Shown here: piece after piece, positions 24,457 to 61,336 of the stretch | Layout of the letters: every line of letters starts with the position of its first letter | How positions within the stretch are numbered: position 1 is the stretch's first letter | DNA from: Candidatus Collierbacteria bacterium RIFOXYD2_FULL_45_13 | GTDB lineage: Bacteria; Patescibacteriota; Microgenomatia; UBA1400; MFAQ01 | Direction of reading: 5' to 3' | NCBI GenBank assembly: GCA_001774685.1 | Contig: MFAS01000001.1 | Span: 479,557 to 543,556 of the forward strand | DNA: 64,000 bases | Made by a program: the position numbers and the translations under genes | Notes under the pieces: model-generated | What the model was told of the DNA's origin: nothing | The model's input: the letters and a program-made list of their open reading frames with translations, nothing else | The model's database searches: none

Positions 24457-25944
24457 ATGATCAACTTCATCAAAAAAAACAAGCTTGAGTCTCTCTTCAT
24501 TTTATTAATCACTCTCCTGTCTCTATATCTCCGCCTGTACCGTATTGGTGAGTTTATGACTTTCTTGGGCGACGAGGGGAGAGATGTCCGTATCGTGCGG
24601 GATCTGATCACCAAAGGTAACCTTGTCTTTATTGGACCGCGAACCAGTATCGGCAACATGTATCTCGGCCCACTTTACTACTACATGATGGCCCCTGCTC
24701 TTTTTCTCTCTCGACTGAATCCAGTTGGTCCGGCCGTTCTGAACGCCATTATTGGTGCCTTTACTGTTTTTATTACATATTTTATCGGCCGAAAACTTTT
24801 CAACCGATGGTCCGGTCTGCTTGCCGCCCTACTATATGCCGTTTCACCCGTAGCTATTATTTATTCTCGTTCTTCCTGGAATCCAAACCCCATGCCTCTA
24901 TTTGCTTTGCTTTGTGTTTGGGGCATATACGAAGTTTGGCAAAACAAGCAATATTTCTGGCTTCCTCTTGTGGGGATTTTCTTTGCTTTTGCCTTGCAGA
25001 TGCATTATCTAGGCTTACTGCTGGGACCGGTTCTCGGTCTGTTTTGGTTCCTTACTCTAATTTCAGTCAATAAGTCAAAGAGCCACTCAGAGAAAAAAAC
25101 CTTTTTAAGTTTTACTCTTTTTGCGTTTTTGAGTTTTTTCATCCTTATGTCGCCACTGTTGCTATTTGACCTCAAACACCAAGGGATGAACTTCAACGCC
25201 TTCAAAATGTTTTTCACCGACAGGCAGACTACCGTCAATCTCAATCCTGCCAGATCAGATCGCTTTCTTCCCGTCATACTCATGACCGTCTCGGACCTGG
25301 TACTATCTCGGCAGACCATGTGGGCTCCGCTGGCTTCCGTTCTGACTCTTGTACTTTCCGTCTGGCTCTATCTCAAATCAAAGTGGCTCAGTCCTCTCAA
25401 AACCGTTTTTGTCTGGCTTGGCTTTGCGATACTCGGTCTTAGTATTTACAAACAGCACGTCTACATTCATTATCTTGGCTTTATTTATCCGGCTGTGTAT
25501 CTGCTGATTGGGGCCATACTCGGCTTTCTCCTCAATCAAAAAACCATCTTCAGATTGATTGCTTCCGTCTTAATCATTTTTCTCTTTACTAATAGTTTAA
25601 TTTTTAGCCCGGTAAAGGAAAACCCCAACCGTCAGCTCCAAAGGACAGAGCAGGCTGTGGATCTGATTGTTAAAGAGGCGAACGGTCAGCCCTTCAACTT
25701 CGGACTGATCGCGAAACAAAACTACGATGAGTCCTACCGTTATTTTTTGGAAAACAAAAATACGGGTTTGGTCAGGGGAGAGGATGAAATAGTCGACCAG
25801 CTTTTCGTTATCTGTGAAGATGGTGACAGTTGTCAGCCCGAAGGTCACCCTGATTGGCAGATAGCAATTTTTGGCCCGTCTCACGTTGTTGGCCAGTGGC
25901 AGATTGATTATCTAAAAATTTATCGCTTAATTCATACCAAATGA
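24457..25944 (+). CDS. PMT/ArnT-like GT-C glycosyltransferase (GT39/GT83 family)
   Basis: It has an N-terminal TM, then RLYRIGEFMTFLGDEGRD (DE loop-1 motif), about 11 TMs and a C-terminal soluble domain. Confidence 0.7.
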   Translation: MINFIKKNKLESLFILLITLLSLYLRLYRIGEFMTFLGDEGRDVRIVRDLITKGNLVFIGPRTSIGNMYLGPLYYYMMAPALFLSRLNPVGPAVLNAIIGAFTVFITYFIGRKLFNRWSGLLAALLYAVSPVAIIYSRSSWNPNPMPLFALLCVWGIYEVWQNKQYFWLPLVGIFFAFALQMHYLGLLLGPVLGLFWFLTLISVNKSKSHSEKKTFLSFTLFAFLSFFILMSPLLLFDLKHQGMNFNAFKMFFTDRQTTVNLNPARSDRFLPVILMTVSDLVLSRQTMWAPLASVLTLVLSVWLYLKSKWLSPLKTVFVWLGFAILGLSIYKQHVYIHYLGFIYPAVYLLIGAILGFLLNQKTIFRLIASVLIIFLFTNSLIFSPVKENPNRQLQRTEQAVDLIVKEANGQPFNFGLIAKQNYDESYRYFLENKNTGLVRGEDEIVDQLFVICEDGDSCQPEGHPDWQIAIFGPSHVVGQWQIDYLKIYRLIHTK

Positions 25945-26486
25945 CCACAAACTACACCAATGGTCCTCTTGTTTGGTTGGATTTGGAATTCACCGATCTC
26001 GACGTCAAAAGAGCCCAGATCGTGGAGATTGCCACGGTCATCACCGATGCCAAGCTCAACATCAAGGCCGTAGGTCCGGACTTGGTTATTCATCAGCCCG
26101 AATCGGTTCTGAGAGGGATGGTTCGCTGGAATCAAGAGCATTTTTCCCAGTCAGGGCTAATGGAGAAAATAGTCTCCTCCAAGATAACCCTGAAACGGGC
26201 CTACGAAGAAACCTTAAAGTTTGTCAAAGCCCATTGTGCCTTCAAGACTGGTGTTTTGGCCGGTTCATCGGTCTATATTGACCGTGAGTTTCTGGGAGAA
26301 TACATGCCTCTTCTTTATGACTACTTACATTTCAGGATCATTGACACCAATACCATTAAGGAGCTCATGCATCGCTGGTACCCTCGGGTTCCCGACTACC
26401 CAAAGATCGAGGCCCATCGGGCAGGAAAAGACATCATTGAGTCCATCAATGAGTTAAAATATTACCAGTCGGAGATCTTCAAGTAG
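25941..26486 (+). CDS. orn: Oligoribonuclease (DEDDh 3'-5' exonuclease)
   Basis: It has the LVWLDLEFTDLD exo I motif, an exo II/III YH..D pattern and is 181 aa. Confidence 0.85.
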   Translation: MTTNYTNGPLVWLDLEFTDLDVKRAQIVEIATVITDAKLNIKAVGPDLVIHQPESVLRGMVRWNQEHFSQSGLMEKIVSSKITLKRAYEETLKFVKAHCAFKTGVLAGSSVYIDREFLGEYMPLLYDYLHFRIIDTNTIKELMHRWYPRVPDYPKIEAHRAGKDIIESINELKYYQSEIFK

Positions 26487-26496
26487 CCGACCATTC

Positions 26497-27258
26497 ATGA
26501 AACCAATGCTTTCCATTGTTGTCAGTAACTACAACGAACACGCCAATTTAGAGCGCGGTGTCCTGGAACAAATGTATCGGCACCTTAAGGGTGTCAGTTA
26601 CTCTTGGGAAGTGATCATCAATGATGATGGTTCCACGGATGGTGGAGACAAAATTATCGAGGATTACGCCAAGAACCACCCTGGTTTTCGGATGATCAGA
26701 GGCAAACACGGTGGGAAAGCGGCCGGTATTTGGAACGGTATACAAGCCGCCAAAGGCGGGATCGTTCTCTTTACGGACATGGATCAGTCTACCCCACTAA
26801 AGGAAGTCGACAAGCTACTGCCTTCCTTTGAATTGGGCTACGATGTTGTTTTTGGTTCCCGCGGTAAAATGCGACACAATTTTTCACCTCTACGTCAAAT
26901 TTCTTCCTGGGCTTTTCGTTCCTTCAGGCGCATGCTCTTGCTTCACGACGTTGTAGATACTCAGTGTGGTTTCAAAGCTCTAAAAACGGAAGTTGCCAGG
27001 AAGATTTTTCCTTTGCTTAGTGTTATCAAAAACAAAAGAACTATCAGTAAAGGTTGGACAGTTTCCGCCTTCGATGTCGAACTACTGTTTCTAGCCGAGA
27101 AACTTGGCTTCAGGCTCAAAGAGATTGATGTCACCTGGAAAAACGAAGACACCTCTGTTAGTAAACAAAAAAGTTTCATTGGCGAGTCCGTTGACATGCT
27201 CAAACAAATTATTCAAGTGAAGATCAACGATCTCTCAGGAAAATATGACCAAAAATAA
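26497..27258 (+). CDS. GT2 glycosyltransferase (dolichyl-phosphate glucosyl/mannosyltransferase-like)
   Basis: It has the LSIVVSNYNEHANL...VIINDDGSTDGG...TDMDQSTP motifs. Confidence 0.8.
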   Translation: MKPMLSIVVSNYNEHANLERGVLEQMYRHLKGVSYSWEVIINDDGSTDGGDKIIEDYAKNHPGFRMIRGKHGGKAAGIWNGIQAAKGGIVLFTDMDQSTPLKEVDKLLPSFELGYDVVFGSRGKMRHNFSPLRQISSWAFRSFRRMLLLHDVVDTQCGFKALKTEVARKIFPLLSVIKNKRTISKGWTVSAFDVELLFLAEKLGFRLKEIDVTWKNEDTSVSKQKSFIGESVDMLKQIIQVKINDLSGKYDQK

Positions 27259-28747
27259 AATCTTTTGGCTACTCGGTTTGGCAGTTATTTCCCTAGCCCT
27301 CTTTTTATTTTTTAGGCTTTATCGTCTGGGGCAAGTCCCTGTTTTTGTTGACGAGGCCATTTATATCCGTTGGTCCCAGGTAATGCGTGCGGAGCCTACG
27401 CTTCGCTTCCTACCACTGTCGGATGGTAAACAGCCCCTCTTTATGTGGTCCACTATGCCCTTTCTCAAGTTCGTCTCAGATCCCTTGCTTGCCGGTCGTT
27501 TGGTCTCCGTCTTTACCGGTTTTGGTTCCTTGGTGGGTATAGGATTGCTGTCATTTCTACTCTTTTCAAATCCCTTTATCGCCCTTTTTTCTTCCCTAAT
27601 TTATGCCATCATTCCCTTCACCGTGTTTTTTGACCGGATGGCTCTAGCGGACAGTATGTTAGCCATGTTTGGAGTCTGGTCTCTGGTCTTTGCCGTCAAA
27701 TTTACCAAATCTCTTCAAACCGAATACGCCCTCTACCTTGGCTTCGCCATTGGAGCCGGCCTCCTGACCAAGTCTCCGGCCATGATCTTTTATTTTTGGG
27801 CCATTCTGGCGGTTTTCTTTTCTCTGGATCAAAAGAAGATTGATTCAAAATTAATCGGCAAACTTGCTTGGGGCTTGTTGCTCGTACTGATTGTCTCTCA
27901 AGCCATGTACGCCATTCTCCGGCTGGGAGTTGGGTTCCAAATGATCGGTGCCCGTAATCAAGACTACGTTTTCTCTATCAAAGAGGTCTTGTCTCACCCT
28001 TTGACACCCTTTGTCGGCAACGCCCGAACTACCCTAAACTGGTTATTCCTTTTGTTAACACCTACGGTGTTGTTGCTAGGCGGACTTGGCTACCTAAACT
28101 CAAAAGTCAGACGCCAATATGTGTTATTGATTGTTGTGGCCCTGATACCTCTCCTGTACCAGGCCTTCATCGCCAAGGTTTACACCAGTCGCTATATTTT
28201 GTATGCCGTCCTGCCTTTAATTCCACTGGCGGGACTGGGTCTTCACTGGCTCTTCAGTCGCAAAGGACTCCTTATCAAATCATCGATCGCCCTTTTTCTT
28301 TCCGTACCATTTCTCATTACTCTTGTCTATTTATTCAAGCCCACTCTAGCGCCCATGCCATTTGACATGCGTAATGGTTATTTTGAGGAATGGACTGCGG
28401 GCTACGGTCAAAGAGAAGTTGCTCAGTACTTGATTACCAAAGCTTCCCAAGGTAAGAAAATAGTCGTATTTACCGAAGGTTTCTTTGGTACACTCCCCGA
28501 TGGTCTGCAGATATACACAGAAGGTAATAAAAACATCACCATTGTTGGCTCTACCTATTATGTTTCTGAAATTCCTTCCGGACTCCTAAACACTTCCGGT
28601 GATAATCTGCGATTCTTGGTTATCAACAAATCCCGGAATCATCTTTCTGCTGCCGACTTATCTAAGTTAGAGTTAGTTAAGGAGTATCCCAAGATGGTCC
28701 GCTCCGACGGCAGTCGGGAGTTCCTCCAGTTCTTCCGCCTGAAATAA
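27245..28747 (+). CDS. PMT/ArnT-like GT-C glycosyltransferase
   Basis: It has RLYRLGQVPVFVDEAIYIRW (DE motif) and about 12 TMs. Confidence 0.7.
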   Translation: MTKNKIFWLLGLAVISLALFLFFRLYRLGQVPVFVDEAIYIRWSQVMRAEPTLRFLPLSDGKQPLFMWSTMPFLKFVSDPLLAGRLVSVFTGFGSLVGIGLLSFLLFSNPFIALFSSLIYAIIPFTVFFDRMALADSMLAMFGVWSLVFAVKFTKSLQTEYALYLGFAIGAGLLTKSPAMIFYFWAILAVFFSLDQKKIDSKLIGKLAWGLLLVLIVSQAMYAILRLGVGFQMIGARNQDYVFSIKEVLSHPLTPFVGNARTTLNWLFLLLTPTVLLLGGLGYLNSKVRRQYVLLIVVALIPLLYQAFIAKVYTSRYILYAVLPLIPLAGLGLHWLFSRKGLLIKSSIALFLSVPFLITLVYLFKPTLAPMPFDMRNGYFEEWTAGYGQREVAQYLITKASQGKKIVVFTEGFFGTLPDGLQIYTEGNKNITIVGSTYYVSEIPSGLLNTSGDNLRFLVINKSRNHLSAADLSKLELVKEYPKMVRSDGSREFLQFFRLK

Positions 28748-28778
28748 TCCTTTTCACCTGCGTATATAATTAAGCCAC

Positions 28779-30530
28779 ATGCGTTATTTTCTCCAATCTA
28801 TTTCTTATCTCGCCAAACTGGTCTGGCGCTTTCGATTGGAGTTATTCTTGTTCTTACTGTTACTTCCTGCCATTGTTGATATCTTCAAGCCAGGCTTCTT
28901 TCCGATGCACGATGATCTCCAGGTTTTTCGTCTCTACGAGGTTCATAAGTGTATTCTCGACGGTCAGATACCTTGTCGTTGGGTTCCCGATGCCGGTTAT
29001 GGTTATGGCTACCCCTTAATGCAGTTTTATCCACCCATGCCGTACTATCCCATGGAGCTCATGGTTTTATTGGGAGCCGGCTATTTCTTACCAGTCAAAA
29101 TCATGTTTGCTCTGGCCTTTTTACTCTCAGGTCTGGGGATGTATCTTTTGGCTAAGGAGTTCTTTGGTCGATGGGGAGGTGTCCTGGCCGGCGTTATCTA
29201 TGTTTACTCTCCTTATCACTCGGTCGATATTTATGTTCGCGGGGCCATGAATGAAGGGTGGGGCATGGTCTGGTTCCCGTTTGTCCTTCTATATATTTAT
29301 CGGTTAATTACCAAAGAAAAATCCAAAACCAATTTTATTCTGTTGAGCCTTGCTTTAGCTTTGCAGCTTACCTCTCACAACGTGATGACCTTGGTTTTTG
29401 CACCCACAGCCATCATCTGGGCCATTTTCTGGATGTGGAAAACCGGTAAATTTATGGCAATCAAAAATCTTTTTCTGTCCGGTCTTCTTGGAATTGGACT
29501 CTCAGCCTTTTTCTTTATTCCGGTCGTTTTGGAACAAAAATTTGTCCATGTCGATTCGATGACCGTCGGTTATTTCAATTACCTCGCCCACTTTGCCGAT
29601 ATCAAACAATTATTTTTGTCCCGTTTTTGGGGCTATGGTGGTTCCACCTGGGGCCCTGAGGATGGTATGTCTTTTTCTATCGGTCATGTCCAATGGATCG
29701 GGGCGATTCTCGTCTCGATTGTCGCTTTGGGGAGGATGTATCGAACCAAGTTTTACAAAAAAGCTATCATCACCTCGAGTATCGCCGAGAAATCACACAC
29801 ACTATCCCTGATGATTATCATGTTAGTTTCTTTTGGATTTTTATACGCCTTCCTTACTCATAGCCGCTCAAACTTTATTTGGGAACGGCTGAGCATCCTT
29901 CAGTTTGCGCAGTTTCCCTGGCGTTTAGTTGCCTTGATAGTTTTCTATTTTTCCTTCGCCACCGGTTATCTTGCCACCGTCGCTATTCCCAAGATTCTAA
30001 AACCGTTTGCCTTCTCCGTTCTTGTTGTCGGTACAATTCTTTTTAATGTTGGGTTTTTCCGCTTCGAAAGGCACGTCAGAATCACCATTCAAGAAAAGCT
30101 TTCCAGTCTTCAATGGGAACTCCAGGTTACCGGTGGGATTTTCGACTACTTACCCCGATCCGCTCCCAAGCCACCCGGCGATCCGGCCTTTACCGTTCCC
30201 CAGTTTTTGTCCGGGCAGGGTGGTATTCTAAACTTCCGGTCCGGGTCAAATTGGATGACTTTTGACGTTAACTCTTCAACCCAGGAGGTGAAGGTGATGT
30301 TACCGCTCTATACTTTTCCGGGTCTCGTTACCAAGATAGACGACCAAAAAGTTGTCACCGAGATAGATCCGAACCTGGGCCGTGTCGTGGTGACTCTCGG
30401 AAAGGGTATGCACCATGTTGATTCAAAAATACGCTATACCCGTACCAGACTATTTTCGGATCTCATCACTTTGATTTCGGCTCTTATATTATTCAAACTA
30501 ATTTCCGATGATCGAAAACACACCGCCTGA
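28779..30530 (+). CDS. Polytopic membrane protein, GT-C/YfhO-like glycosyltransferase candidate
   Basis: The N-terminal loop carries the MHDDLQVFRL motif. It has more than 10 TMs and a C-terminal soluble beta-rich domain. Confidence 0.45.
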   Translation: MRYFLQSISYLAKLVWRFRLELFLFLLLLPAIVDIFKPGFFPMHDDLQVFRLYEVHKCILDGQIPCRWVPDAGYGYGYPLMQFYPPMPYYPMELMVLLGAGYFLPVKIMFALAFLLSGLGMYLLAKEFFGRWGGVLAGVIYVYSPYHSVDIYVRGAMNEGWGMVWFPFVLLYIYRLITKEKSKTNFILLSLALALQLTSHNVMTLVFAPTAIIWAIFWMWKTGKFMAIKNLFLSGLLGIGLSAFFFIPVVLEQKFVHVDSMTVGYFNYLAHFADIKQLFLSRFWGYGGSTWGPEDGMSFSIGHVQWIGAILVSIVALGRMYRTKFYKKAIITSSIAEKSHTLSLMIIMLVSFGFLYAFLTHSRSNFIWERLSILQFAQFPWRLVALIVFYFSFATGYLATVAIPKILKPFAFSVLVVGTILFNVGFFRFERHVRITIQEKLSSLQWELQVTGGIFDYLPRSAPKPPGDPAFTVPQFLSGQGGILNFRSGSNWMTFDVNSSTQEVKVMLPLYTFPGLVTKIDDQKVVTEIDPNLGRVVVTLGKGMHHVDSKIRYTRTRLFSDLITLISALILFKLISDDRKHTA

Positions 30531-31986
30531 CGCACCATCACCGCTGGAAGTGCAGGAAGTTAAACGACGTTCTGTTTCTGGTGTTATGGCTCTAATTTCC
30601 CGGACTTTTATCATTCAGATTATTTCCTTTGTTGCCACCCTCGCCCTCACGATCTTTCTCGATCCCAAGACGTACGGAGTCTTCTATCTGGTTTCCTCGG
30701 TCGTCAATTTTCTTGCCTATTTTTCGGATGTTGGTTTGGCCGCCGCCCTCATTCAAAAGAAAGAGGGAATTACCAAGGAAGACTTGTCGACCACATTTAC
30801 CATCCAGCAGCTATTGGTCGTTTCGATTCTCGTCATTCTTTTTATTCTCTCTCCGTTTATCCGCACTCAGTACCAGATCGATCAGACCGGGATGTATCTA
30901 CTTTTTGCCATGGGGGTTTCGCTTTTCCTCAGTTCGCTAAAGACTATCCCTTCTATTATGCTGGAAAGAGAAATCAAGTTCAGCAGGCTAATTCTACCTC
31001 AGGTACTGGAAACACTTACCTTCAATGCCATTGCTGTTTATTGTGCTTGGAAAGGTTTTGGGGTTACCTCTTTTACTCTAGCAGTTCTCGGTCGGGGGGT
31101 TGTCGGTCTCATCGCTATGTACCTTGTATATCCTTGGATGCCGTCGTTTGGTATTAGCCGGTCCTCACTTTCGCACTTACTACGCTTCGGTTTACCTTAC
31201 CAGGTGAACACTTTCTTGGCCGTTCTCAAAGATGATGGCATGACCATCATCCTCACCCGCATCATTGGTACTCAAGGACTCGGTTATATCGGTTGGGCCT
31301 CGCGTTGGGCCGGCCTACCTTTAAGAATCGTTATGGACAATCTCACGAAAGTTTCTTTCCCCACCTTCGCCAGGTTGCAACACGACAAAGAAAGGCTGGC
31401 GAAAGCGGTCGAAATCAGTCTGAAGTACATGTGTTTGTTGGCGTTTCCCATTCTTGTCGGTATGGGTTTTTTGGCTCTCCCTATGACCCACCTCATTCCC
31501 CGATATGTCAAATGGCTTCCAGCCATCATTCCCCTATATATCTATCTCTACAACTCGGCCTGGGCCAGTATTAGTACCAGTCTTACTAATCTCCTCAATG
31601 CTACAGGACACATCAAGTCCACTTTCAAACTAATGCTGATGTGGACCGGTCTTACCTGGCTTATTATGCCTTTTTCGGCCCTGAAGTTTGGTTACCTGGG
31701 CGTTGCCTATGCCACCGGGATTATCGCCACCTCTTCTCTAATCACCATACTGCTTGCCAAAAAACATATAGATTTTAGTTTCTCCAATATTATTAGGACG
31801 CCCGTTTTGGCCTTGCTGCCTATGATCGCCTGGCTTTATTTCTCCGCTGGCTCAATTTCCTCTGTCTTTTCCCTCATTATTGTTATTACGTTCGCTGTCA
31901 CAATTTATACCCTAGCCATTTTGATTCTCGAGGGAAAATCATTTTTCCGGGATACTCTTAGTTACTTTAAGATAAGACATGCTTAG
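30508..31986 (+). CDS. Wzx-type oligosaccharide flippase (MOP/PST family polysaccharide biosynthesis protein)
   Basis: It has a 12-14 TM topology with a PST-family N-terminus (LISRTFIIQIISFVATLALTIFLDPKTYGVFYLVSSVVNF...AALIQKK). The real start may be an internal Met near 30586. Confidence 0.7.
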   Translation: MIENTPPDAPSPLEVQEVKRRSVSGVMALISRTFIIQIISFVATLALTIFLDPKTYGVFYLVSSVVNFLAYFSDVGLAAALIQKKEGITKEDLSTTFTIQQLLVVSILVILFILSPFIRTQYQIDQTGMYLLFAMGVSLFLSSLKTIPSIMLEREIKFSRLILPQVLETLTFNAIAVYCAWKGFGVTSFTLAVLGRGVVGLIAMYLVYPWMPSFGISRSSLSHLLRFGLPYQVNTFLAVLKDDGMTIILTRIIGTQGLGYIGWASRWAGLPLRIVMDNLTKVSFPTFARLQHDKERLAKAVEISLKYMCLLAFPILVGMGFLALPMTHLIPRYVKWLPAIIPLYIYLYNSAWASISTSLTNLLNATGHIKSTFKLMLMWTGLTWLIMPFSALKFGYLGVAYATGIIATSSLITILLAKKHIDFSFSNIIRTPVLALLPMIAWLYFSAGSISSVFSLIIVITFAVTIYTLAILILEGKSFFRDTLSYFKIRHA

Positions 31987-35961: not shown

Positions 35962-35988
35962 ACGATTTGTCTGATATATAATACCTTT

Positions 35989-37041: not shown

Positions 37042-37056
37042 GCTATAATTAAGTCA

Positions 37057-37986: not shown

Positions 37987-37987
37987 T

Positions 37988-46043: not shown

Positions 46044-46079
46044 TGGGCTCACTTTTGGTTCCACCTATCCCATAACAAA

Positions 46080-46133: not shown

Positions 46134-46140
46134 TTAAAAT

Positions 46141-48393: not shown

Positions 48394-48430
48394 TTTATAG
48401 ACGGCAAAATTGCTATACTAAATCATCTAA

Positions 48431-49681: not shown

Positions 49682-49683
49682 GT

Positions 49684-52067: not shown

Positions 52068-52091
52068 CGAATATAATTCTATTAGACTAAC

Positions 52092-52907
52092 ATGAAGAAT
52101 CTAATTTTTTGGACATCCACCATTCTCATATTTGTCTTCTGGCCGTTTTCATTTGTTCTTTCGAATCGGTCCGACTCGGTCATCTTTATCCTCGCTGCCT
52201 TAGTTTTGTTGGTGGACCGGTTTCTTTATCTTCGGAAGTACCAATATCACTATTTTACTTACCTGGTTTTGCCGTTACTTCATCCGGCCTACTTATTCTT
52301 TCCGATAGTCGCCATTCTTTTTTACTGGTCTGATATCAAAAAAATGTCTCTGGTTATTTACGCCGTATTCTTGATATTTATCTCCCTGTTTTCCTGGCAA
52401 TCCTTTTACGCCTACTCCATCTTTACTCCCGATCCGCTAGCCTTCGACACTCTAAACAAAAAAATCTCCCTTATTCCGAACAGGAACCTTGCCCGAATCT
52501 TTCACAACAAAACCGACCTTTTTCAGGATAAATTCAAGTCAAACGTTTTAACTTCTCTAGATCCAAACAACTATTTTTTTGCTCTTCACCCTCGGGAAAT
52601 TTTTGAAAACCAAAATCTCCACAAGTTCCCCTTCTTGGCCATAGTTCTCTTCTTGATTGGACTCTATCTCTTGATCAAGAGCCAGGATAGACTGTGGATA
52701 GTGTCTACACTCTTAGCCGGAATATTTTCCATTGCTCTGATCAATAATCAAGACAAGTTCGATCTGATTTTATATCTGCCCATCGCTCTCATCTGTTTAA
52801 TTGGCTTGAGAAAAATCTTTACTCTTTGCCAAGCATATTACCTTATTTTTTCCTTTCTCTTCTTACCTCTATCAATTATCGAACTGGCTCGCATAATCTT
52901 TAGATAA
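52092..52907 (+). CDS. Integral membrane hypothetical protein
   Basis: It is 271 aa with at least 7 TMs, and sits immediately upstream of the PMT-like tandem array. Confidence 0.35.
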   Translation: MKNLIFWTSTILIFVFWPFSFVLSNRSDSVIFILAALVLLVDRFLYLRKYQYHYFTYLVLPLLHPAYLFFPIVAILFYWSDIKKMSLVIYAVFLIFISLFSWQSFYAYSIFTPDPLAFDTLNKKISLIPNRNLARIFHNKTDLFQDKFKSNVLTSLDPNNYFFALHPREIFENQNLHKFPFLAIVLFLIGLYLLIKSQDRLWIVSTLLAGIFSIALINNQDKFDLILYLPIALICLIGLRKIFTLCQAYYLIFSFLFLPLSIIELARIIFR

Positions 52908-54581: not shown

Positions 54582-56281
54582 AATTCAAAAACATCCTTAG
54601 CCGATACTGGCCCCTTCTTTTAGTTCTTCTTCTGGGCGCCACTCTCAGACTCTATGGCTTACTTCAAAATCCAATCAGTCTATTTTCCGATGAGGTGGAC
54701 ATTGGTTATCAAGCATATTCCTTTTTATCCACTGGCAAGGATTATCAGGGGAACTGGCTACCTTTACAATTCCACTCCTTCTCCGACGTTCGTACGGCTT
54801 TACCCATCTACGCGACAGCTCTCGTCTCCCTCATCCCCAATGTGAGTTTGGATCTAGCCATTCGTCTTACGCCAGCTATCTTCGCTATTCTCGGCCTACT
54901 GGTAATCTATTTTTTGGCCAATAACATTTCCGAGCTGTTTGGACTTGGTGCCCGTGGCAATCTACTTTCTCTCGGTTTCTGGTCTACACTGATTTTATCG
55001 GTACTCCCTTGGCACTTCACTTATTCACGGATTGGTTTCGAACTTTCTATGCTAATTACGTTTTATCTGTTGGGTTTATTTTTCTACACACATTTCTTAA
55101 TCCACAATAGAGTCTGGGCTTTCATAGTCTCTTTGATATTGTTTTCGCTCACTCCCATGATTTACAGCACAGCCAAGCTTGCTCTGATATTTGTTCCTCT
55201 GACTTTATATATCCTTCCCGGTGCCAAAGAACTTTTGTGGGGTAAGAAGATCTCCCTTTGGCTTCTGCTACTGTTTATACCGCTCGGTTTTATTTTTATA
55301 AACGGAGGCGCGGCTCAACGTTTCAGTGAGATATCCATTTTTACGGACCCCACGACTCCCACCGAAATTAATTTTTTAAGAAAAGAGGACTTGGGTCCGC
55401 AGGCCCCTGTTGGATCACAGACCAACTTCTTTAGTAAAGCCATCCACAACAAAGTCATTTATCCTCTGGATGTTTTTCTAAAGAACATAGTAAGACCTCT
55501 TTCTTTTGACTATCTTTTTCTTCAGGGAGACACCAACCCCAGACATGCGGTTCAAGGCTGGGGCATGATGGAAAAAGCCCTCATTATTCCGCTTCTATTT
55601 GGTCTCTACAAGTTGGCTGAAGGCAAGCAAAAAAGGTTCCTCGTTTTTCTTTTCATACTAACGGTTGCCGCTATTATTCCTTCCGCTCTGACTCGAGATG
55701 GCGCCACCCATTCCTCTAGAACGTTTATGCTTATACTGCCTTTGGTCTTGGTCACCTCCTTTGGTTTTTATAATCTTTTTTCATCTTCGAGGTGGTTGGC
55801 TCTTTTGATTTTCTTGATGCTTCTGGTAGACACTTCTTACTACCTTCATGACTACTGGTCCCATTATCGGTACACGTCAGAGAGGTCTTGGAGTGCCGGC
55901 ATGAAAGGATTGATGGAATCAGTTGGTAAACACCCTGATCAGCCGGTAACTATCTCTCCAAAGTACGAGTATCCACTCATCTTCTATTTGTATTACACCC
56001 GCTTAGATCCACGAAAATTCCAAGCTTACTCCCAAAACCATACTGTTTATAACTCTACCTCAGGAAACTTTAACCTGGATGGCAACCGGATCGGGGACTC
56101 CAATTTCTACATTGCTTCGCTGGTGGATTACAAAAACAAACCTTCCGCATTATTACCAAACGCAGTTTATTACCTCACCAGGTCCGAGGTTGACACCAGT
56201 GCAATTGGTTCTGTGGCGACGATCGATGACATTATTAGTTTGCCCTCCGGCGAACCACTTTATTATGAACTCCATTACTAA
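54578..56281 (+). CDS. PMT/ArnT-like GT-C glycosyltransferase (array member 2)
   Basis: It has RLYGLLQNPISLFSDEVDIGYQAYSFLSTGKDYQGNWLP and an LPWH loop. Confidence 0.75.
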   Translation: MKFKNILSRYWPLLLVLLLGATLRLYGLLQNPISLFSDEVDIGYQAYSFLSTGKDYQGNWLPLQFHSFSDVRTALPIYATALVSLIPNVSLDLAIRLTPAIFAILGLLVIYFLANNISELFGLGARGNLLSLGFWSTLILSVLPWHFTYSRIGFELSMLITFYLLGLFFYTHFLIHNRVWAFIVSLILFSLTPMIYSTAKLALIFVPLTLYILPGAKELLWGKKISLWLLLLFIPLGFIFINGGAAQRFSEISIFTDPTTPTEINFLRKEDLGPQAPVGSQTNFFSKAIHNKVIYPLDVFLKNIVRPLSFDYLFLQGDTNPRHAVQGWGMMEKALIIPLLFGLYKLAEGKQKRFLVFLFILTVAAIIPSALTRDGATHSSRTFMLILPLVLVTSFGFYNLFSSSRWLALLIFLMLLVDTSYYLHDYWSHYRYTSERSWSAGMKGLMESVGKHPDQPVTISPKYEYPLIFYLYYTRLDPRKFQAYSQNHTVYNSTSGNFNLDGNRIGDSNFYIASLVDYKNKPSALLPNAVYYLTRSEVDTSAIGSVATIDDIISLPSGEPLYYELHY

Positions 56282-57992
56282 AAATCGACCACTCCTCTTC
56301 CTCTTTTTGTTCACCTTGCTCGGTGGTCTGCTCCGTTTTTGGAAATTAGACTCCTTTCCCGTTTCCCCAAACTGGGATGAAGCAAGTCACGGTTATAACG
56401 CTTTCTCGATTTTATTGACTGGCAAGGACGAATGGGGGGTCAGACTTCCTCTAATTTTTCGAGCCTTTGGTGATTACAAGCTACCTCTATATATCTACCT
56501 CACTGCTATACCTGTTTGGTTATTCGGATTAACCACCTTTTCGGTCCGCTTCATTTCTGCCTTGGCCGGCACTCTTGCCATCCCAGGCATTTACTTATTA
56601 ACCCGTGAGCTCTTTTCTCCATCACCAACCACTTCGCACTCCGCACCTCGCACTAACTACTCACTTTTCTCCGCTCTCCTCTTGGCCCTTTCTCCCTGGC
56701 ACTTTTTCATTTCCCGCCCGGCTTTGGAAGCCAACCTTTCTCTTACCTTAATCATTTTCGGCTTCTATTTCTTACTTAAATTCTTCCACTCAATTTCTCG
56801 CACCAATCACTACGCACTAATCACTTCTGTGGTTCTTCTCGGTCTCTCTCTCCATACTTACAATACGGCACGAGTCTTCGTGCCCTTACTCGTCATCGCG
56901 TCGTTTCTTATTTTTCGCCCCTCGTTCCGTGCACTTCGCACTCCGCACCTCGCACTAATAAGTTCCACCTTTCTTGCCCTTCTTTTCTCCGGTCTGGTTA
57001 TCTTTCAAGTATTTCTTGGTGCTGGTACCGCCCGTTATGAGAAACTCAAGATACTTTCTCCGGCCACTGTCTTCCAAATAGGGGAACAGAGAGCCCACAG
57101 CACTCTTAGTCCGCTCATCTCCAAATTAGTCCATAACCGCCCCATCTATTTCTTATCTGCTTTTACCAAAAATTATCTTGGATATTTCTCGCCACAATTT
57201 TTTTCTCAGCAATGGGGAGCCCAGTTCCAATTCGCCATTCCCGGTCAAAGTCTCTTAACTCTCCCCATCTTTCTTCTTGCTCTTCTCGGTTTTTCATTAC
57301 ACCTGCCGTCACTACGAGGTTCCTGGTCTTCGTTAAAATTCCTTTACGCTTGGTTACTTCTTTCCCCAGTAGCGGCCAGTCTTACTATCGACCCTCCCCA
57401 GGCACTCCGTCCGAATCCCATGATCCCGGCCATCATTATTTTTGCGGGTCTTGGTTTGTCTTGGCTGTTGACTGTTATTCCTGCCAAATTCATTAAACTC
57501 TTTACGATACTACTAGTACTATGGATCGGTGTCTCTTTTGGCTATTATCTCAGACAGTATTTTGGGAGCTATGCCTTGACGTATTCTTCTTCCTGGCAAT
57601 ACGGCTACGCCGAAGCCATGAACTTTGTTAAGGATCATCGGAATGAATATGATCGTGTTTTTATTACCAAACGTTTCGGAGAACCACACATTTTCTATGC
57701 CTTTTTCAATAGAGTTTCTCCACTATCAATACAACCAGGTGGGGACAATATTCGTTTTCAAAAATCGGATTGGTACTGGACGGATAAGATAGATAACATC
57801 TATTTCATCAATGATTGGCAAATTCCGGTCACTTCCATCAAGACTCTTCCTTTGGAGAGTGGGGGAGAGGTATCAACCCAAAAGAGCCTCTTAATTACTT
57901 CTGCCGGTCATGTCCCTGTCAACGCCCATGTCATTAAGACAGTCAATTTTCTCGATGGATCCCCAGCGTTTATAATTACCTCAGTACCTTAG
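56265..57992 (+). CDS. PMT/ArnT-like GT-C glycosyltransferase (array member 3)
   Basis: It has RFWKLDSFPVSPNWDEASHGYNAFSILLTGKDEWGVRLP. The ATG at 56265 is used because the ORF-track N-extension overlaps the upstream gene in another frame. Confidence 0.7.
   Translation: MNSITKNRPLLFLFLFTLLGGLLRFWKLDSFPVSPNWDEASHGYNAFSILLTGKDEWGVRLPLIFRAFGDYKLPLYIYLTAIPVWLFGLTTFSVRFISALAGTLAIPGIYLLTRELFSPSPTTSHSAPRTNYSLFSALLLALSPWHFFISRPALEANLSLTLIIFGFYFLLKFFHSISRTNHYALITSVVLLGLSLHTYNTARVFVPLLVIASFLIFRPSFRALRTPHLALISSTFLALLFSGLVIFQVFLGAGTARYEKLKILSPATVFQIGEQRAHSTLSPLISKLVHNRPIYFLSAFTKNYLGYFSPQFFSQQWGAQFQFAIPGQSLLTLPIFLLALLGFSLHLPSLRGSWSSLKFLYAWLLLSPVAASLTIDPPQALRPNPMIPAIIIFAGLGLSWLLTVIPAKFIKLFTILLVLWIGVSFGYYLRQYFGSYALTYSSSWQYGYAEAMNFVKDHRNEYDRVFITKRFGEPHIFYAFFNRVSPLSIQPGGDNIRFQKSDWYWTDKIDNIYFINDWQIPVTSIKTLPLESGGEVSTQKSLLITSAGHVPVNAHVIKTVNFLDGSPAFIITSVP
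56630..56958 (+). repeat. Exact 27-nt direct repeat CACTTCGCACTCCGCACCTCGCACTAA (56630..56656 and 56932..56958) inside one PMT-like gene
   Basis: The two copies are identical and lie 302 nt apart, so they are read in different frames (TSHSAPRTN versus ALRTPHLAL). Degenerate relatives occur at about 56796..56825 and in the paralog at 53256..53281. Confidence 0.7.
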
Positions 57993-59666
57993 GTGCTACT
58001 CATGAAGAAATACTTACTCTTAATTACCGCTCTAGTCATTGGCGCTTTCCTCCGCCTTTGGATGCTTTCTTCGGTTCCCAACGGACTAACCTGGGACGAG
58101 GCCGCCATTGGCTACAACGCCTACTCTCTTTTGAAGACCGGGCGCGATGAGCATGGCGCCATATTACCCATTGTTTTCAAAAGTTTTGGTGATTTCAAAC
58201 CTGGTGCTTACATTTACCTGACAGTACCATCGGTGGCCATCTTTGGTCTAAATGAGTTTGCTGTGCGTTTCCCCAGTGCTCTTGCCGGCATCCTAGCTAT
58301 TTGGGGTATTTATCTCCTAACTCGCGAAATCTTCGCAACCTTTGCAAAAGAACACAGTAACCAATTGGCTTCCTTTGCCGCCCTCGCCTTGGCCTTGTCA
58401 CCTTGGCATGTACATTTTAGTCACGGAGCTTGGGAGGTTAACGTTTTCACCACCCTGACCATCTTCGCCCTTTACTACTTTCTCAGGTTTGTCAAAGGCA
58501 AGTCCACACTCTATCCCACGCTCTTCTTCGCTTGTTTCTCGCTTGCCATGTATCAAGCGGCCAAACTTTTGACACCCCTAGTGTACTTACTTTTTGTCAT
58601 CCCTTTCTGGAAAGAGTTCTGGTATCAGCTGACCCCATATTTCAAGCCCAAAAAAATTCTACTAACTTCCCCCTTTATTCTATTTGGTCTCTGGATCTTC
58701 TTTGGTTCGTTGTTCGGTAGCGCGGGCAACCGACTGACCACCCTGAGTATCTTCAACTACAAACCAGGAATATCCGCCGAAACGAAGGCCATAGACAATC
58801 AAAATCCGGTTACTTTAGATCTGTTTCATAACCAAAAAGAGCTTTCTACCAGACTTGTTCTTTCCCGCTACTTGTATCACTTTTCACCGGAGGTCCTTTT
58901 CTATGAAGGCCCCATTGTCTCCGAGAGAGGCCATCTCCCTGGTCTCGGGGTCCTTAATCCCTTAGAGTTCATCTGGTTAGTAATTGGTTTTATCTGGCTG
59001 GTCAAAAGTCTCTCCCCTGGAAGTCACGACACACCGGACAGATCCACCGCCTTGGTTTTGGGGTTGCTTCTCGTCGCCCCCATTCCTGCTTCGTTGACCC
59101 TAGCCGAATTTTCTACCGTTCGAGCACTATTCATGGCCGTCCCTCTAGCCATGATCTCAGGCGTCGGTATCTACTATCTATATACAAACTCGAAAATATT
59201 TTTCTCCCTTTTCGCCGGTGTCTATATACTTTGCACCATATATGTTTTTGATAACTATTTCTTTCACTCCCAAACCGTTTTCGCCAAGGAGTTCAACTAC
59301 GGCTACAAACAAGTAATTCAAATAATCAAAGAAAATCCAACCAAACGAGTAGTCTTTACCGATGTCTATGGCCAGCCATACATCTACTATGTGTTCTATA
59401 CGGCTTATGATCCTGCTACCTACCAAAAAAATAACGAATTTATCAGTGGTGGTTTGGATGTCGGCCGAGTGGATCACGTTGGGAATGTTGAGTTCCATCA
59501 ATTTGGCTCATCGGATATGATGACGCAACCAGACACCCTCTTTATCGGTTCCGAAGGGAATATTAATAACCAATTCGACATCGCCGGGCCAAAAGTTGAC
59601 CTTTTTAGACAAATCGAAACTCCGGACCATCACATTCTTTTCCGGGTCATTAAAACCAAACCTTAA
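57993..59666 (+). CDS. PMT/ArnT-like GT-C glycosyltransferase (array member 4)
   Basis: It has RLWMLSSVPNGLTWDEAAIGYNAYSLLKTGRDEHGAILPIVF. Confidence 0.75.
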   Translation: MLLMKKYLLLITALVIGAFLRLWMLSSVPNGLTWDEAAIGYNAYSLLKTGRDEHGAILPIVFKSFGDFKPGAYIYLTVPSVAIFGLNEFAVRFPSALAGILAIWGIYLLTREIFATFAKEHSNQLASFAALALALSPWHVHFSHGAWEVNVFTTLTIFALYYFLRFVKGKSTLYPTLFFACFSLAMYQAAKLLTPLVYLLFVIPFWKEFWYQLTPYFKPKKILLTSPFILFGLWIFFGSLFGSAGNRLTTLSIFNYKPGISAETKAIDNQNPVTLDLFHNQKELSTRLVLSRYLYHFSPEVLFYEGPIVSERGHLPGLGVLNPLEFIWLVIGFIWLVKSLSPGSHDTPDRSTALVLGLLLVAPIPASLTLAEFSTVRALFMAVPLAMISGVGIYYLYTNSKIFFSLFAGVYILCTIYVFDNYFFHSQTVFAKEFNYGYKQVIQIIKENPTKRVVFTDVYGQPYIYYVFYTAYDPATYQKNNEFISGGLDVGRVDHVGNVEFHQFGSSDMMTQPDTLFIGSEGNINNQFDIAGPKVDLFRQIETPDHHILFRVIKTKP

Positions 59667-61336
59667 TGAAAAAAAACCTTCCCATTATTCTTATCTTGAT
59701 ATTAGCCGCCGCTCTTAGACTCTTTGCTTTAGACAAGTTTCCTGCTGGACTAAATGCTGACGAGGCGGCCATCGGTTACAACGCTTGGTCTCTGATCCAG
59801 ACAGGGAAAGATGAACATGCCATGTCTTGGCCACTCGTGTTTCGGTCTTTTGATGACTACAAACCCCCAATTTATTTTTACCTAGTTGTTCCCTTTGTAA
59901 AAATTCTTGGACTAAATGTTTGGTCTGTCCGTCTCCCATCAGCTCTACTCGGCACAGCCACTGTTTATTTGCTGTACTTAGTGGTCTATCTTTTATTCAA
60001 GAAAAAAACTACCGACGAGTCCTGCCACATCAAAACAAATAATTTTGCACTGATAACTGCCCTTATTTTGGCAGTGTCCCCATGGCATCTACAGTTTTCT
60101 CGTGGAGGATGGGAAGTCAACGCTGCTTTGTTTTTTATCCTTTTGGGTATTTGGGGGTTTTTAAAAGGCTTGGAGAAGCCAAGATATTTCTTCTTATACG
60201 TCACTTCAATGGCCATCAGTCTTTATACTTATCACTCGGCCCGTGTAATTTCACCACTTATCTCTCTTACTCTGATCATTCTTTATTGGAAATCTCTTTT
60301 CCCAATTTCGTCGTTGCGCTTGCCCACCAAAACCTTTCTCCTTTCCTGTCTTGTTGGAGTTTTATTAGCTCTTCCCCTTGCCTCTCAATTATTATCCAAA
60401 GAAGGACAATCCCGCTTTACCGGTGTTTCAGTCTTTTCCGATACCGGCCCTCTTTGGCAAGCATTGGAGATGCGCCGAGCTCATCAGGGAGATACGGTCT
60501 ATGTCAAAGCTCTTCACAATCAATACCTTTCTTATGGTCTTAGATTCGTCAAGAATTACTTGTCTCATTTTTCACCCAGATTCCTATTTGTTACAGGGGA
60601 TGAAATTGCCAGAAGCAAAGTCCCCGAAATGGGACAAACCTACTTATTTCTGATCCCATTTTATTTTCTTGGTCTCTTTTCTCTTTTAAAGTTAGACTCC
60701 AAGGGCAAGGTATTCACTCTGGTTTGGATTTTGATCGCCCCACTCGCGGCCGCACTTACCTTCCAGTCCCCTCACGCCCTCAGGTCGCAGAACATGGTCA
60801 TTCCTCTGAGTATCATTTCCGGTTTGGGTTTTTCGGTGGTTCTCAATCTTTTATTCAGGTCCGGTAAAAAGTGGCTTGTAGGATCCATCTCCGCCCTCTT
60901 GCTCATTCTTGGTGGGTATTCGGTTGGCAGATACCTACATCTCTATTATGTTCACTACCCCAAAACACTACCTTATGCTTGGCAATACGGTTTTGACCAG
61001 ATTGCTGATTATGTGGGTCAGCAGTATTACAACTACGACCGAATCCTCATCTCCGACCGTTACGATCAGCCATATATCCTCATGGCATTTTTCCTGAAGT
61101 ATGATCCAAGAGTGCTTCAGCAAGAGCTGGTCATGACTCCCCGAGACAAGTTTGGCTTTTCCACTGTCAGAAAGTTCGGCAGGATGGAGTTCCGTCAGAT
61201 AAATTACCAGGAAGACAAAAAACTATCCAATACCCTTATAATCTCAGCTGATGAGCCGGTAGATGACAAGGCCGTTATTTATACCATAAACGACCCCGCC
61301 GGCCTCCCCATGTACAAATTCGTCTCCACCAAATGA
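59666..61336 (+). CDS. PMT/ArnT-like GT-C glycosyltransferase (array member 5)
   Basis: It has RLFALDKFPAGLNADEAAIGYNAWSLIQTGKDEHAMSWPLVF. Confidence 0.75.
   Translation: MKKNLPIILILILAAALRLFALDKFPAGLNADEAAIGYNAWSLIQTGKDEHAMSWPLVFRSFDDYKPPIYFYLVVPFVKILGLNVWSVRLPSALLGTATVYLLYLVVYLLFKKKTTDESCHIKTNNFALITALILAVSPWHLQFSRGGWEVNAALFFILLGIWGFLKGLEKPRYFFLYVTSMAISLYTYHSARVISPLISLTLIILYWKSLFPISSLRLPTKTFLLSCLVGVLLALPLASQLLSKEGQSRFTGVSVFSDTGPLWQALEMRRAHQGDTVYVKALHNQYLSYGLRFVKNYLSHFSPRFLFVTGDEIARSKVPEMGQTYLFLIPFYFLGLFSLLKLDSKGKVFTLVWILIAPLAAALTFQSPHALRSQNMVIPLSIISGLGFSVVLNLLFRSGKKWLVGSISALLLILGGYSVGRYLHLYYVHYPKTLPYAWQYGFDQIADYVGQQYYNYDRILISDRYDQPYILMAFFLKYDPRVLQQELVMTPRDKFGFSTVRKFGRMEFRQINYQEDKKLSNTLIISADEPVDDKAVIYTINDPAGLPMYKFVSTK

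Follow-up and report, generated by a model that had tools for sequence, protein, structure and literature searches.

Several bacterial pathways rely on membrane-embedded glycosyltransferases of the GT-C superfamily. In actinobacterial protein O-mannosylation by the Ppm1/Pmt system (GT39), which moves mannose from a polyprenol-phosphate donor to Ser/Thr residues of translocated proteins, Pmt is a single gene, and the ArnC/ArnT system (GT83), which adds aminoarabinose to lipid A, has one ArnT gene. Mycobacterial and corynebacterial envelopes involve sets of GT-Cs (embCAB, AftA-D, PimE, MptA-C) that make LM/LAM and arabinogalactan. Firmicute three-component systems (CsbB/GtrB + GtcA/GtrA + YfhO; GacI/GacL; S. 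mutans Pgf; GtrB/PgtC2) pair a GT2 that makes undecaprenyl-phosphate sugars with a GtrA-type element and, in each pathway, one or two GT-Cs. The acceptor of a GT-C family cannot be assigned from sequence: among YfhO relatives, the glycosylated target is teichoic acid in some species and Ser/Thr-rich protein in others (bioRxiv 10.1101/2024.05.05.592596).

Here we analyzed a 64,000-nucleotide stretch (the window) from a Candidatus Collierbacteria genome (Microgenomates, CPR), a small genome from groundwater. The window contains about 15 GT-C-superfamily genes, which take up ~26 kb, and two truncated derivatives. Proteins identical to those of the window were found on contigs as long as 1.09 Mb, and the organism has a genome of ~1.1 Mb; GT-C coding sequence corresponds to ~2.4% of 1.09 Mb. 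A single co-directional gene string extends from 46707 to 63223 and includes a tandem row of GT-C genes. Genes described below are on the plus strand unless stated otherwise.

The original prediction listed nine PMT/ArnT-like paralogs, here numbered G1 to G9, and all nine open reading frames were found where it had placed them. They encode polytopic proteins of 495–575 aa with 9–13 hydrophobic segments apiece, consistent with the ~550-aa layout that had been described. G1 (24457..25944, 495 aa), G2 (27245..28747, 500 aa), G3 (41493..43157, 554 aa), and G4 (50385..52067, 560 aa, IDEVSIGYNAFS) are followed by the five-gene row of G5 (52908..54581, 557 aa), G6 (54578..56281, 567 aa), G7 (56265..57992, 575 aa), G8 (57993..59666, 557 aa), and G9 (59666..61336, 556 aa). 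The G7 gene is real, but its start had been over-extended to 56079; the true start is the ATG at 56265. This start, set against the preceding stop at 56281, fits the 17-nt overlap quoted before, and the four junctions of the row are −4, −17, 0, and −1 nt.

The Pfam family PMT_2 (PF13231, gathering threshold 26.1 bits) was found above threshold in six of the nine proteins, namely G1 (E 1.2e-12), G2 (1.6e-9), G5 (3e-8), G7 (4e-9), G8 (3e-10), and G9. G3, G4 (PMT_2 score of only 15.7 bits), and G6 had no Pfam hit of their own. G4 and G6 matched the tandem paralogs over their full lengths (BLASTP E 1e-16 to 1e-49), with E values of 6e-49 and 9e-44 for G4 against G9 and G5, and 1e-32 to 1e-34 for G6 against G5, G9, and G8. 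G3 matched G1 (BLASTP E 9e-12), its family profile (A2) aligned with the tandem-family profile (A1) at an hhalign probability of 96.6% (E 6e-10), and PF13231 is present in many of the G3 orthologs. G1 and G2 were linked to the tandem family at 97.4% and 96.5% (hhalign).

The GT-C fold was recognizable from an N-terminal transmembrane module, juxtamembrane helices in the first outer loop, ~13 transmembrane segments, and a C-terminal outer domain, and all nine proteins conserve acidic residues in the first extracytoplasmic loop. The loop motif is D-E in eight of them (GDEGRD in G1, VDEA in G2) and D-Q in G3. In the G3 orthogroup D39 was invariant among 41 sequences and Q40 at least 90% conserved, and the D-Q is thus fixed in this group and not a mistake in the sequence. 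In the tandem family D32, E33, and D49 were invariant across 44 sequences, with the catalytic loop intact in all six tandem paralogs. The first outer loop was by far the best-conserved segment, and 15 of its 37 residues were common to the G7, G8, and G9 orthogroups. The nine are GT-C enzymes with an intact acidic motif, none being placed in a non-glycosyltransferase family. Pairwise identity between paralogs was only 25–33% (BLASTP), showing that they are old and diverged rather than recently duplicated, as had been proposed.

The count of nine was too low. A tenth GT-C (28779..30530, 583 aa) reached PTPS_related and PMT_2 at threshold, matched the YfhO gene by BLASTP (E 1e-8), and its family profile aligned with the GT87, A1, and A2 profiles at 87–91%. 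The YfhO-family GT-C itself (43125..45380, minus strand, 751 aa) carries PF09586 (E 6e-19). A GT87-family GT-C at 48431 passed its family model (28.6 bits against a cut-off of 25) and stands outside the nine. A protein of 371 aa (22591..23706, minus strand) is probably a small PIG-V/GT87-like GT-C: it had no Pfam hit of its own, its family profile aligned with GT87 at 96.9% (hhalign), and weak homologs (23–28% identity, 38–50 bits) that follow the GT4 in other loci carried PF04188 above the cut-off in three of five cases. A 1020-aa protein (31979..35041) without a Pfam hit joins an outer domain of ~450 aa to a 12-TM GT-C-like module; its family profile aligned with the 28779 family at 95.7% and the tandem family at 90.4%. 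Its C-terminal half was homologous (BLASTP 4e-17) to a 544-aa GT-C-like polytopic protein (38773..40407), which shares its profile links and likewise lacked a Pfam hit, and which is narrowly distributed, with only 11 homologs found. Two shorter membrane proteins probably derive from a tandem-family GT-C. One of 234 aa (49684..50388) aligned with A1 residues 258–349 (profile hhalign 94.3%, E 1e-7; single-sequence 44%), as if taken from the middle of such an enzyme, and lacks TM1 and the catalytic loop. The other, of 271 aa (52092..52907), aligned with the central and C-terminal transmembrane part (A1 residues 189–422; profile hhalign 90.8%, E 1e-6; single-sequence 69%) and also lacks the catalytic loop.

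The claim that polyprenol-phosphate-sugar synthases lie beside the GT-Cs was borne out. A polyprenol-phosphate-hexose synthase (21310..22533) fuses a GT2 domain (PF00535) to a GtrA-type 4-TM domain (PF04138, E 1.8e-10) and aligned along its entire length with 5MLZ, the Dol-P-Man synthase of Pyrococcus furiosus (residues 23–389, E 1.2e-42). A GtrA-type transmembrane domain in a Dol-P-Man synthase belongs to the synthase, and no free-standing GtrA was found in the window. A short synthase-like GT2 (GT2a, 23726..24442; PF00535 E 1.6e-31) lies 14 nt upstream of G1, and showed full-length matches to the ArnC, GtrB, and Dol-P-Man synthase structures while scoring below every NCBIfam equivalog cut-off. 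A second (GT2b, 26497..27258; PF00535 E 7e-22) shares its last 14 nt with the beginning of G2 and resembles PgfS, ArnC, and Dol-P-hexose transferase in NCBIfam at scores below the cut-offs. Synthases are thus encoded with GT-Cs (21310, GT2a with G1, GT2b with G2), as in the three-component systems.

The link to actinobacterial Pmt was weak. As in that system, a Dol-P-Man-synthase-like GT2 (21310) accompanies GT-Cs with a D-E loop, G2 passed the PMT family PF02366 (39.8 bits, E 5e-10), and G3 was structurally nearest to Pmt4 and Pmt2. However, the other eight proteins had no PF02366 hit at E ≤ 0.01, all nine lacked the PMT C-terminal 4-TM domain (PF16192) and the MIR domain of eukaryotic members at the same threshold, and there are multiple paralogs here. 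The nearest solved structures were mixed, with ArnT and ALG12 for G9 and Pmt4, ALG12, and Pmt2 for G3; sequence searches with the paralogs matched no PDB chain significantly. Likeness to ArnT was not significant at the sequence level (hhalign against Escherichia coli ArnT 0.2%; at best 18.6 bits for the ArnT equivalog PRK13279, whose cut-off is 567). No Pfam domain pointed to ArnA, ArnB, or ArnD among window ORFs of at least 150 aa, a size below which ArnE and ArnF fall, and six tandem paralogs stand here in place of the one ArnT gene. Lipid A is generally considered to be absent from CPR bacteria.

Like the Firmicute three-component systems, the window holds a YfhO homolog. The nine paralogs, in contrast, are of the PMT_2 type, with no YfhO type among them, and form part of a conserved multi-paralog operon. 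The window also encodes a Wzx-type flippase (30508..31986; Polysacc_synt_3 E 7e-50), which belongs to another kind of pathway than a GtrA-type flippase element. Unlike the mycobacterial and corynebacterial GT-Cs, no gene had an Emb or Aft Pfam hit and none of the nine fell in GT53, GT85, GT87, or GT89. Nothing points to a mycolate envelope in the host, a CPR bacterium with a genome of ~1.1 Mb. Other glycan genes in the window include rmlA/B/C/D-like genes for dTDP-rhamnose supply (13907..17472; Pfam NTP_transferase, GDP_Man_Dehyd/Epimerase, dTDP_sugar_isom, RmlD_sub_bind), three cytoplasmic GT2 genes (35044, 37057, 37937; 35044..38794) with a DHH/DHHA1 gene (35989) in between, a GT4 (Glycos_transf_1, 40421..41488), and two GT2 genes (46707, 47575) that, with the GT87 gene, open the co-directional string (46707..49681). 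Two of the GT2s resembled rhamnosyltransferases (37057, TIGR01556 E 1e-16) or rhamnosyl-/galactofuranosyl-transferases (47575, by NCBIfam comparison). By analogy with the three-component systems, the dTDP-rhamnose genes and the rhamnosyltransferase-like GT2s hint that the acceptor could be a polymer containing rhamnose.

To place the tandem row, we compared 53 Microgenomates loci, none of them shorter than 19 kb. The core order G7-G8-G9-GT2-GT4 was kept with one-to-one orthologs in 46–47 of them: G9 was followed by a cytoplasmic GT2 (61333..62214; PF00535) and a cytoplasmic GT4 (62192..63223; Glycos_transf_1, Glyco_transf_4) in 47, and the two upstream GT-Cs were present in 46. The median intergenic distance in this operon was −4 nt, and a synthase-like GT2 lay at most four genes downstream of the core in 44 of the 53 loci. 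In a neighbor-joining tree of 254 sequences, genes at position 0 fell in the G9 clade in 50 of 51 cases, those at position −1 in the G8 clade in 46 of 50, and those at position −2 in the G7 clade in 45 of 46. Such positional one-to-one orthologs came from loci attributed to Collier-, Woese-, Shapiro-, and Daviesbacteria, and those of G9, the best-conserved member, were 56–90% identical. The expression "massively expanded", which implies a lineage-specific burst, therefore does not describe this family; G7, G8, and G9 are old enzymes, each conserved in its own right, and G4 to G9 are not redundant copies. Upstream of G7, the array differed by lineage in the number and type of its genes (G4/G5/G6-like, GT87-like, and 28779-like). 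The G6 orthogroup contained 40 sequences, and those of G4 and G5 were small and mostly restricted to Collierbacteria. Altogether, the system is larger and older than the original prediction supposed.

We consider that the locus is a cell-envelope glycosylation super-locus, whose GT-Cs build a conserved envelope glycan or lipoglycan step by step, with a probability of about 0.5. This reading is favored because the tandem core is consistently accompanied by a cytoplasmic GT2 and GT4, and the rml genes, the Wzx flippase, the rhamnosyltransferase-like GT2s, and the GT87 enzyme in the same locus also count for it. Cytoplasmic GT2s (21310, 23726, 26497) would load sugars from nucleotide sugars onto polyprenol phosphate, and the lipid-linked sugars would reach the outer face through the fused GtrA domain of 21310 (putatively) or other carriers. 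There, each GT-C paralog would pass a lipid-linked sugar to an acceptor outside the membrane, with the aspartate in the first outer loop of the enzyme serving in catalysis. The GT4 and GT2 would make a lipid-anchored primer inside the cell, and after its export G7, G8, and G9 would each add a particular residue or linkage. Enzymes of the G4–G6, GT87, and 28779 types would likewise each add a residue or linkage, the set varying by lineage, and the GT2a-G1 and GT2b-G2 pairs would be separate two-gene decoration modules, some perhaps acting on proteins. By analogy with mycobacterial LM/LAM and arabinogalactan assembly, the tandem genes are most likely such a stepwise assembly line; we infer the sequential extension from the conserved order, the presence of GT4 and GT2 partners, and the catalytic loops that the paralogs keep.

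The original prediction had instead proposed expanded protein O-glycosylation. On this view the GT-Cs would move polyprenol-phosphate sugars onto Ser/Thr residues of proteins that are secreted or anchored in the membrane, such as pilins, sortase substrates, or Ser/Thr-rich linkers, and the paralogs would divide acceptors, sugars, or elongation steps among them. We regard this as a serious though less probable alternative. Several observations count against an envelope glycan: the best PDB matches of the core GT2 were the protein/peptide glycosyltransferases GmaR and SunS, over its N-terminal 95 residues only; the best structural match of G3 was Pmt4, marginally; no priming phosphoglycosyltransferase of the WecA/MraY or WbaP type was present among window ORFs of at least 150 aa; and the window encodes plausible protein acceptors, one a sortase substrate with LPATG and the other a protein that is anchored in the membrane and contains a poly-Thr tract. 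However, these candidates are 20–50 kb away, the PMT C-terminal domain is missing from all nine, and both ArnT and ALG12, nearest to G9, have lipid-linked acceptors. Known bacterial protein O-glycosylation systems need one or two GT-Cs and not a fixed series of six. No secreted-protein gene was conserved in the operon across the compared loci, where the universal core partners are the two cytoplasmic glycosyltransferases, and nothing in the sequence demonstrates a protein acceptor.

It is improbable that G7, G8, and G9, perhaps with the 234- and 271-aa proteins, form one multi-subunit transferase like Pmt1-Pmt2 or EmbA-EmbB that performs a single reaction or a coupled pair. The overlapping, translationally coupled genes, their strict co-conservation, and the retention of only non-catalytic transmembrane parts in the two short proteins would suit such a hetero-oligomer, but every paralog keeps a full catalytic loop, which is unexpected for purely structural subunits. 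Interchangeable side-chain modifiers that diversify the surface against phages or hosts, like Gtr O-antigen cassettes, would account for the lineage-dependent array upstream of G7 and the narrow G4 and G5 orthogroups, but are unlikely given that the fixed core order and the 56–90% identity of G9 orthologs do not fit fast-turnover cassettes.

Next to nothing is known about what the cell envelope of CPR/Patescibacteria is made of, although it is with this envelope that these ultra-small bacteria attach to the hosts they live off. The share of the genome given to GT-Cs, and an order of several GT-C genes kept in most of the Microgenomates loci compared, argue for an extracytoplasmic glycan that is conserved and probably important. 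The row of old, order-conserved paralogs points to an elaborate sugar coat on the cell exterior, whose targets may be proteins or a wall or lipid polymer. G7, G8, G9, and their GT2 and GT4 partners are concrete orthologous targets for work on the envelope glycan, and the diverged paralogs with one common catalytic loop provide a natural series for the evolution of acceptor specificity in the GT-C fold. More speculatively, Microgenomates, and perhaps other CPR, might possess a conserved, complex lipoglycan or wall heteropolysaccharide built nearly wholly outside the membrane by at least three to seven ordered GT-Cs (G7, G8, and G9 with members that vary by lineage), maybe as a hetero-oligomer with truncated, non-catalytic GT-C subunits. 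If true, Microgenomates would represent an independently arisen, mycobacterium-like mode of envelope building in ultra-small episymbiotic bacteria.

Nine genes of the window had been predicted to encode GT-C glycosyltransferases (G1 to G9, starting at 24457, 27245, 41493, 50385, 52908, 54578, 56265, 57993 and 59666, respectively), and all nine proved to be real open reading frames. As predicted, every product was polytopic, with 9–13 hydrophobic segments, and carried an acidic pair just after TM1, in the first outer loop (loop-1), which was D-E in eight proteins and D-Q in G3. In the G3 orthogroup, D39 was invariant and Q40 was at least 90% conserved, indicating that D-Q is a fixed trait. For the tandem family (G4–G9, 50385–61336), an alignment of 44 sequences that included all six tandem paralogs showed that D32, E33, and D49 were invariant. 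Their common loop-1 consensus (DEaaiGYNAyS..TGkDEhG...P..FrSf.DYKPP) was the most conserved segment of the protein and contributed 15 of the 37 positions conserved across all G7, G8, and G9 orthogroups. The invariant catalytic loop ruled out that the paralogs are pseudo-enzymes. Since only five residues were orthogroup-specific, the region for acceptor specificity could not be placed in G7, G8, and G9.

One gene boundary had to be corrected. The ORF given as starting at 56079 was over-extended, and the in-frame ATG at 56265 yielded a 575-aa protein with a paralog-like N-terminus (MNSITKNRPLLF...) and a 17-nt overlap with the preceding stop codon. The overlaps of 1–17 nt expected in the five-gene row G5–G9 were found at junctions of −4, −17, and −1 nt, but one junction measured 0 nt. 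The tandem genes are part of a co-directional string (46707–63223) in which no two neighbors are more than 37 nt apart. Between 45 and 64 kb, promoter-like sites (22 vs. 30 expected from shuffling) and terminator-like sites (24 vs. 20) were not above expectation and were uninformative on transcription units. ORFs of at least 150 aa in other frames within or overlapping the GT-C genes (41909–42712, 43461–43985, and 60082–60543) are almost certainly spurious.

The Pfam PMT_2 gathering score was exceeded by six of the nine proteins, and G2 also passed PF02366 (PMT). Of those with no Pfam match of their own, G4 and G6 showed full-length similarity to the tandem paralogs (E values of 1e-16 to 1e-49), and G3 was similar to G1 (E = 9e-12). 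Many G3 orthologs carried PF13231, and the G3 family profile (41 sequences) matched the tandem-family profile at 96.6%; this hhalign comparison succeeded only profile against profile and failed when the G4–G9 profile was aligned with the single G3 sequence (1.3%). By these similarities, the nine paralogs are assigned to the GT-C/PMT_2 superfamily. The closer kinship to GT39 and GT83 in the original prediction could not be demonstrated: one of the nine matched PF02366, none had a match to the C-terminal PMT domain, and the GT83 ArnT score was 18.6 bits against a cut-off of 567. Some orthologs already carry the NCBI name "glycosyltransferase family 39 protein". An Agl23 identity (TIGR03663) from NCBIfam was set aside at ~35 bits against a cut-off of 126. 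The tandem loop-1 layout resembles the Escherichia coli ArnT loop (PDETRYAEISREMLASGDW...YFEKP) by eye only, and hhalign of the family profiles against this ArnT was not significant.

When G9, G2, and the G9 family profile (44 sequences) were searched against all PDB chains, no sequence match was returned, and these proteins were linked to solved GT-Cs through fold comparison only. AlphaFold models built on family alignments were confident for both G9 (pLDDT 89.1, pTM 0.90) and G3 (pLDDT 87.8, pTM 0.90). By fold, the proteins are thus GT-C enzymes of the ArnT/PMT/STT3 kind, at 10–14% identity, and neither protein-modifying nor lipid-modifying relatives were clearly favored.

In a scan with one genome per species, the confirmed relatives numbered at least 567. 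By gene content, the 80 best loci all belonged to Microgenomates or unclassified Patescibacteria, and every ORF of these loci was mapped back onto the window. The core G7-G8-G9-GT2(61333–62214)-GT4(62192–63223) was found at 35–90% identity in loci assigned to Collier-, Woese-, Shapiro-, and Daviesbacteria, and a similar cluster occurred in a record labelled Wildermuthbacteria. Among the 53 loci of at least 19 kb, G9-GT2-GT4 was present in 47, one GT-C gene lay directly 5' of G9 in 51 and two in 46, and a synthase-like GT2 followed within four genes downstream in 44; the median intergenic distance was −4 nt. In a neighbor-joining tree of 254 sequences without outgroups, genes at the G9 position grouped with G9 (50/51), those one gene upstream with G8 (46/50), and those two genes upstream with G7 (45/46). 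The G6 orthogroup had 40 members, and those of G4 and G5 were small. Upstream of G7, the number and type of array genes varied. Positional orthology and synteny thus identify the tandem row as an old, order-preserving operon and rule out a recent lineage-specific expansion, in agreement with the earlier view that the paralogs did not arise by recent duplication. The best matches came from Candidatus Collierbacteria (Microgenomates, CPR/Patescibacteria), with identical proteins in Collierbacteria GW2011_GWA2_46 and RIFOXYB2_FULL_46_14; the RIFOXYB2_FULL_46_14 contig that encodes them is 1,089,561 bp long. This Microgenomates operon also occurs, at 40–78% identity, in many public entries (including loci L005, L008, L013, L015–L021, and L023) under the titles "uncultured Pseudomonadales" or "uncultured Gammaproteobacteria", and these titles look like taxonomic mislabels.

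Including six genes beyond the nine, the window is estimated from sequence to hold about 15 GT-C-superfamily genes, covering roughly 26 kb. Pfam identified 28779 (PTPS_related/PMT_2), 43125 on the minus strand (YfhO), and 48431 (GT87). For 49684, 52092, 22591 (minus strand), 31979, 38773, and 63236, Pfam gave nothing usable at E ≤ 5, and they were classed solely via orthologs and profiles. The 22591 profile matched the GT87 family at 96.9%; its similarity to relatives placed after GT4 in other genomes was weak (23–28% identity), and three of five relatives tested matched PF04188 (PIG-V). Gene 38773 and the C-terminal half of 31979 matched the profiles of the 28779 family (95.7%) and the tandem family (90.4%). 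The 31979–35041 product (1020 aa) joins an outer domain of ~450 aa, whose orthologs weakly match DUF3863, to a GT-C-like 12-TM module; no family was assigned, and the gene directly follows that of a Wzx flippase. Directly 5' of G4 and G5 lie genes for small polytopic proteins (49684–50388, 234 aa; 52092–52907, 271 aa), which map to TM segments in the middle and at the C-terminus of tandem-family proteins (profile matches of 94% and 91%), have neither TM1 nor the catalytic D-E loop, and are kept in Collierbacteria loci at 53–87% identity. Both were apparently derived from the tandem family by truncation and may be non-catalytic partner subunits.

Three candidate donor synthases are encoded in the window. 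The 21310 product combines a GT2 with a GtrA/DPMS TM domain, and its residues 23–389 matched the Pyrococcus furiosus Dol-P-Man synthase 5MLZ (E = 1.2e-42). The GT2 at 23726, 14 nt 5' of G1, had full-length matches to ArnC, GtrB, and DPMS, and the GT2 at 26497, whose gene runs into the start of G2, is similar to PgfS, ArnC, and Dol-P-hexose transferases. All three fell below the NCBIfam equivalog cut-offs, so their sugars cannot be named. In the operon, the N-terminal 95 residues of the GT2 at 61333 best matched the solved structures of Listeria GmaR (E = 1e-12), a flagellin O-GlcNAc transferase, and SunS, a peptide S-glycosyltransferase; its C-terminal two-thirds matched no solved structure. 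The adjoining GT4 is generic.

The window opens with genes for an LPATG surface protein, a sortase, PilB/PilC and pilins, and a CAP protein, followed by rmlABCD. Adjoining the sortase and LPATG genes, 3178–4143 encodes a 321-aa protein with no Pfam match. It combines a signal peptide with a poly-Thr/Ser/Pro tract (SFTTTTTTSTTTGS...TPEPIIDNSQAPTPS), and a TM segment with a basic tail anchors it at the C-terminus; such Ser/Thr-rich membrane-proximal regions are O-glycosylated in streptococci. From ~21 kb to the window end, the glycosylation region is almost unbroken, with only a few housekeeping genes between. Among these are genes for TrmD (20400–21035, minus strand), an RNase T-like exonuclease (25941–26486), and a DHH/DHHA1 phosphoesterase (35989–37041), which apparently belong to the same co-directional strings as the glycosylation genes. 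Genes for a DUF4256 protein and a TIR_2-domain protein (167 aa) lie at 45483–46644, between the YfhO gene and the glycosyltransferase string, and could form a small inserted island with a role in defence or NADase activity. The sole near-consensus sigma-70-like site in 45–64 kb (46080–46108, 11/12) is just 5' of the TIR gene.

The analysis established that the proteins have a GT-C fold, that the catalytic loop is intact throughout the tandem paralogs, that genes for polyprenol-phosphate-sugar-synthase homologs lie next to them, that the operon is tight, and that orthology is positional. We give a probability of about 0.5 to the tandem enzymes and their GT2/GT4 partners forming a stepwise assembly line for a conserved envelope glycan or lipoglycan. 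This reading is preferred for two reasons. Six paralogs that keep both an intact catalytic loop and a fixed order are consistent with non-redundant steps, and the partners conserved universally are all cytoplasmic glycosyltransferases, with no secreted protein among them. However, no priming phosphoglycosyltransferase was found among the ORFs of at least 150 aa in the window, which does encode plausible protein acceptors, namely the LPATG protein and the C-terminally anchored poly-Thr protein. Protein O-glycosylation, as in the original prediction, is possible though less probable, and has real precedent in the Ppm1/Pmt system and in GtrB/PgtC2 and Pgf of streptococci. Family membership cannot decide the acceptor, since YfhO, one GT-C family, acts on teichoic acids or on proteins depending on the species (bioRxiv 10.1101/2024.05.05.592596). 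A hetero-oligomer of GT-C paralogs, compatible with the other readings, would fit the gene coupling and the truncated relatives, but we consider it improbable. Variable surface decoration is equally doubtful and fits only the lineage-variable upstream members.

No paper was found on this operon or on a GT-C expansion in CPR bacteria, and the multi-GT-C operon with GT2 and GT4 partners conserved in Microgenomates, the GT-C gene density in a ~1.1 Mb genome, and the truncated GT-C-derived small proteins all appear to be undescribed. On the basis of GT87 and Dol-P-Man synthase genes, a saccharibacterium was independently suggested to have PIM-like glycolipids (Starr et al. 2018, PMC6031116). Like this row, the mycobacterial embCAB is an operon of tandem paralogs. 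GT-C enzymes take sugars from lipid-phosphate donors and transfer them at the outer face, and this established mechanism would apply here as well. In the proposed assembly line, a lipid-anchored primer would be made inside the cell by the conserved GT4 and GT2, both cytoplasmic, and the synthase–GT-C pairs 23726-G1 and 26497-G2 would be separate decoration modules. After export, the envelope glycan or lipoglycan would gain one defined residue from each of G7, G8, G9, and the variable enzymes encoded upstream, analogous to the stepwise synthesis of mycobacterial LM/LAM and arabinogalactan.
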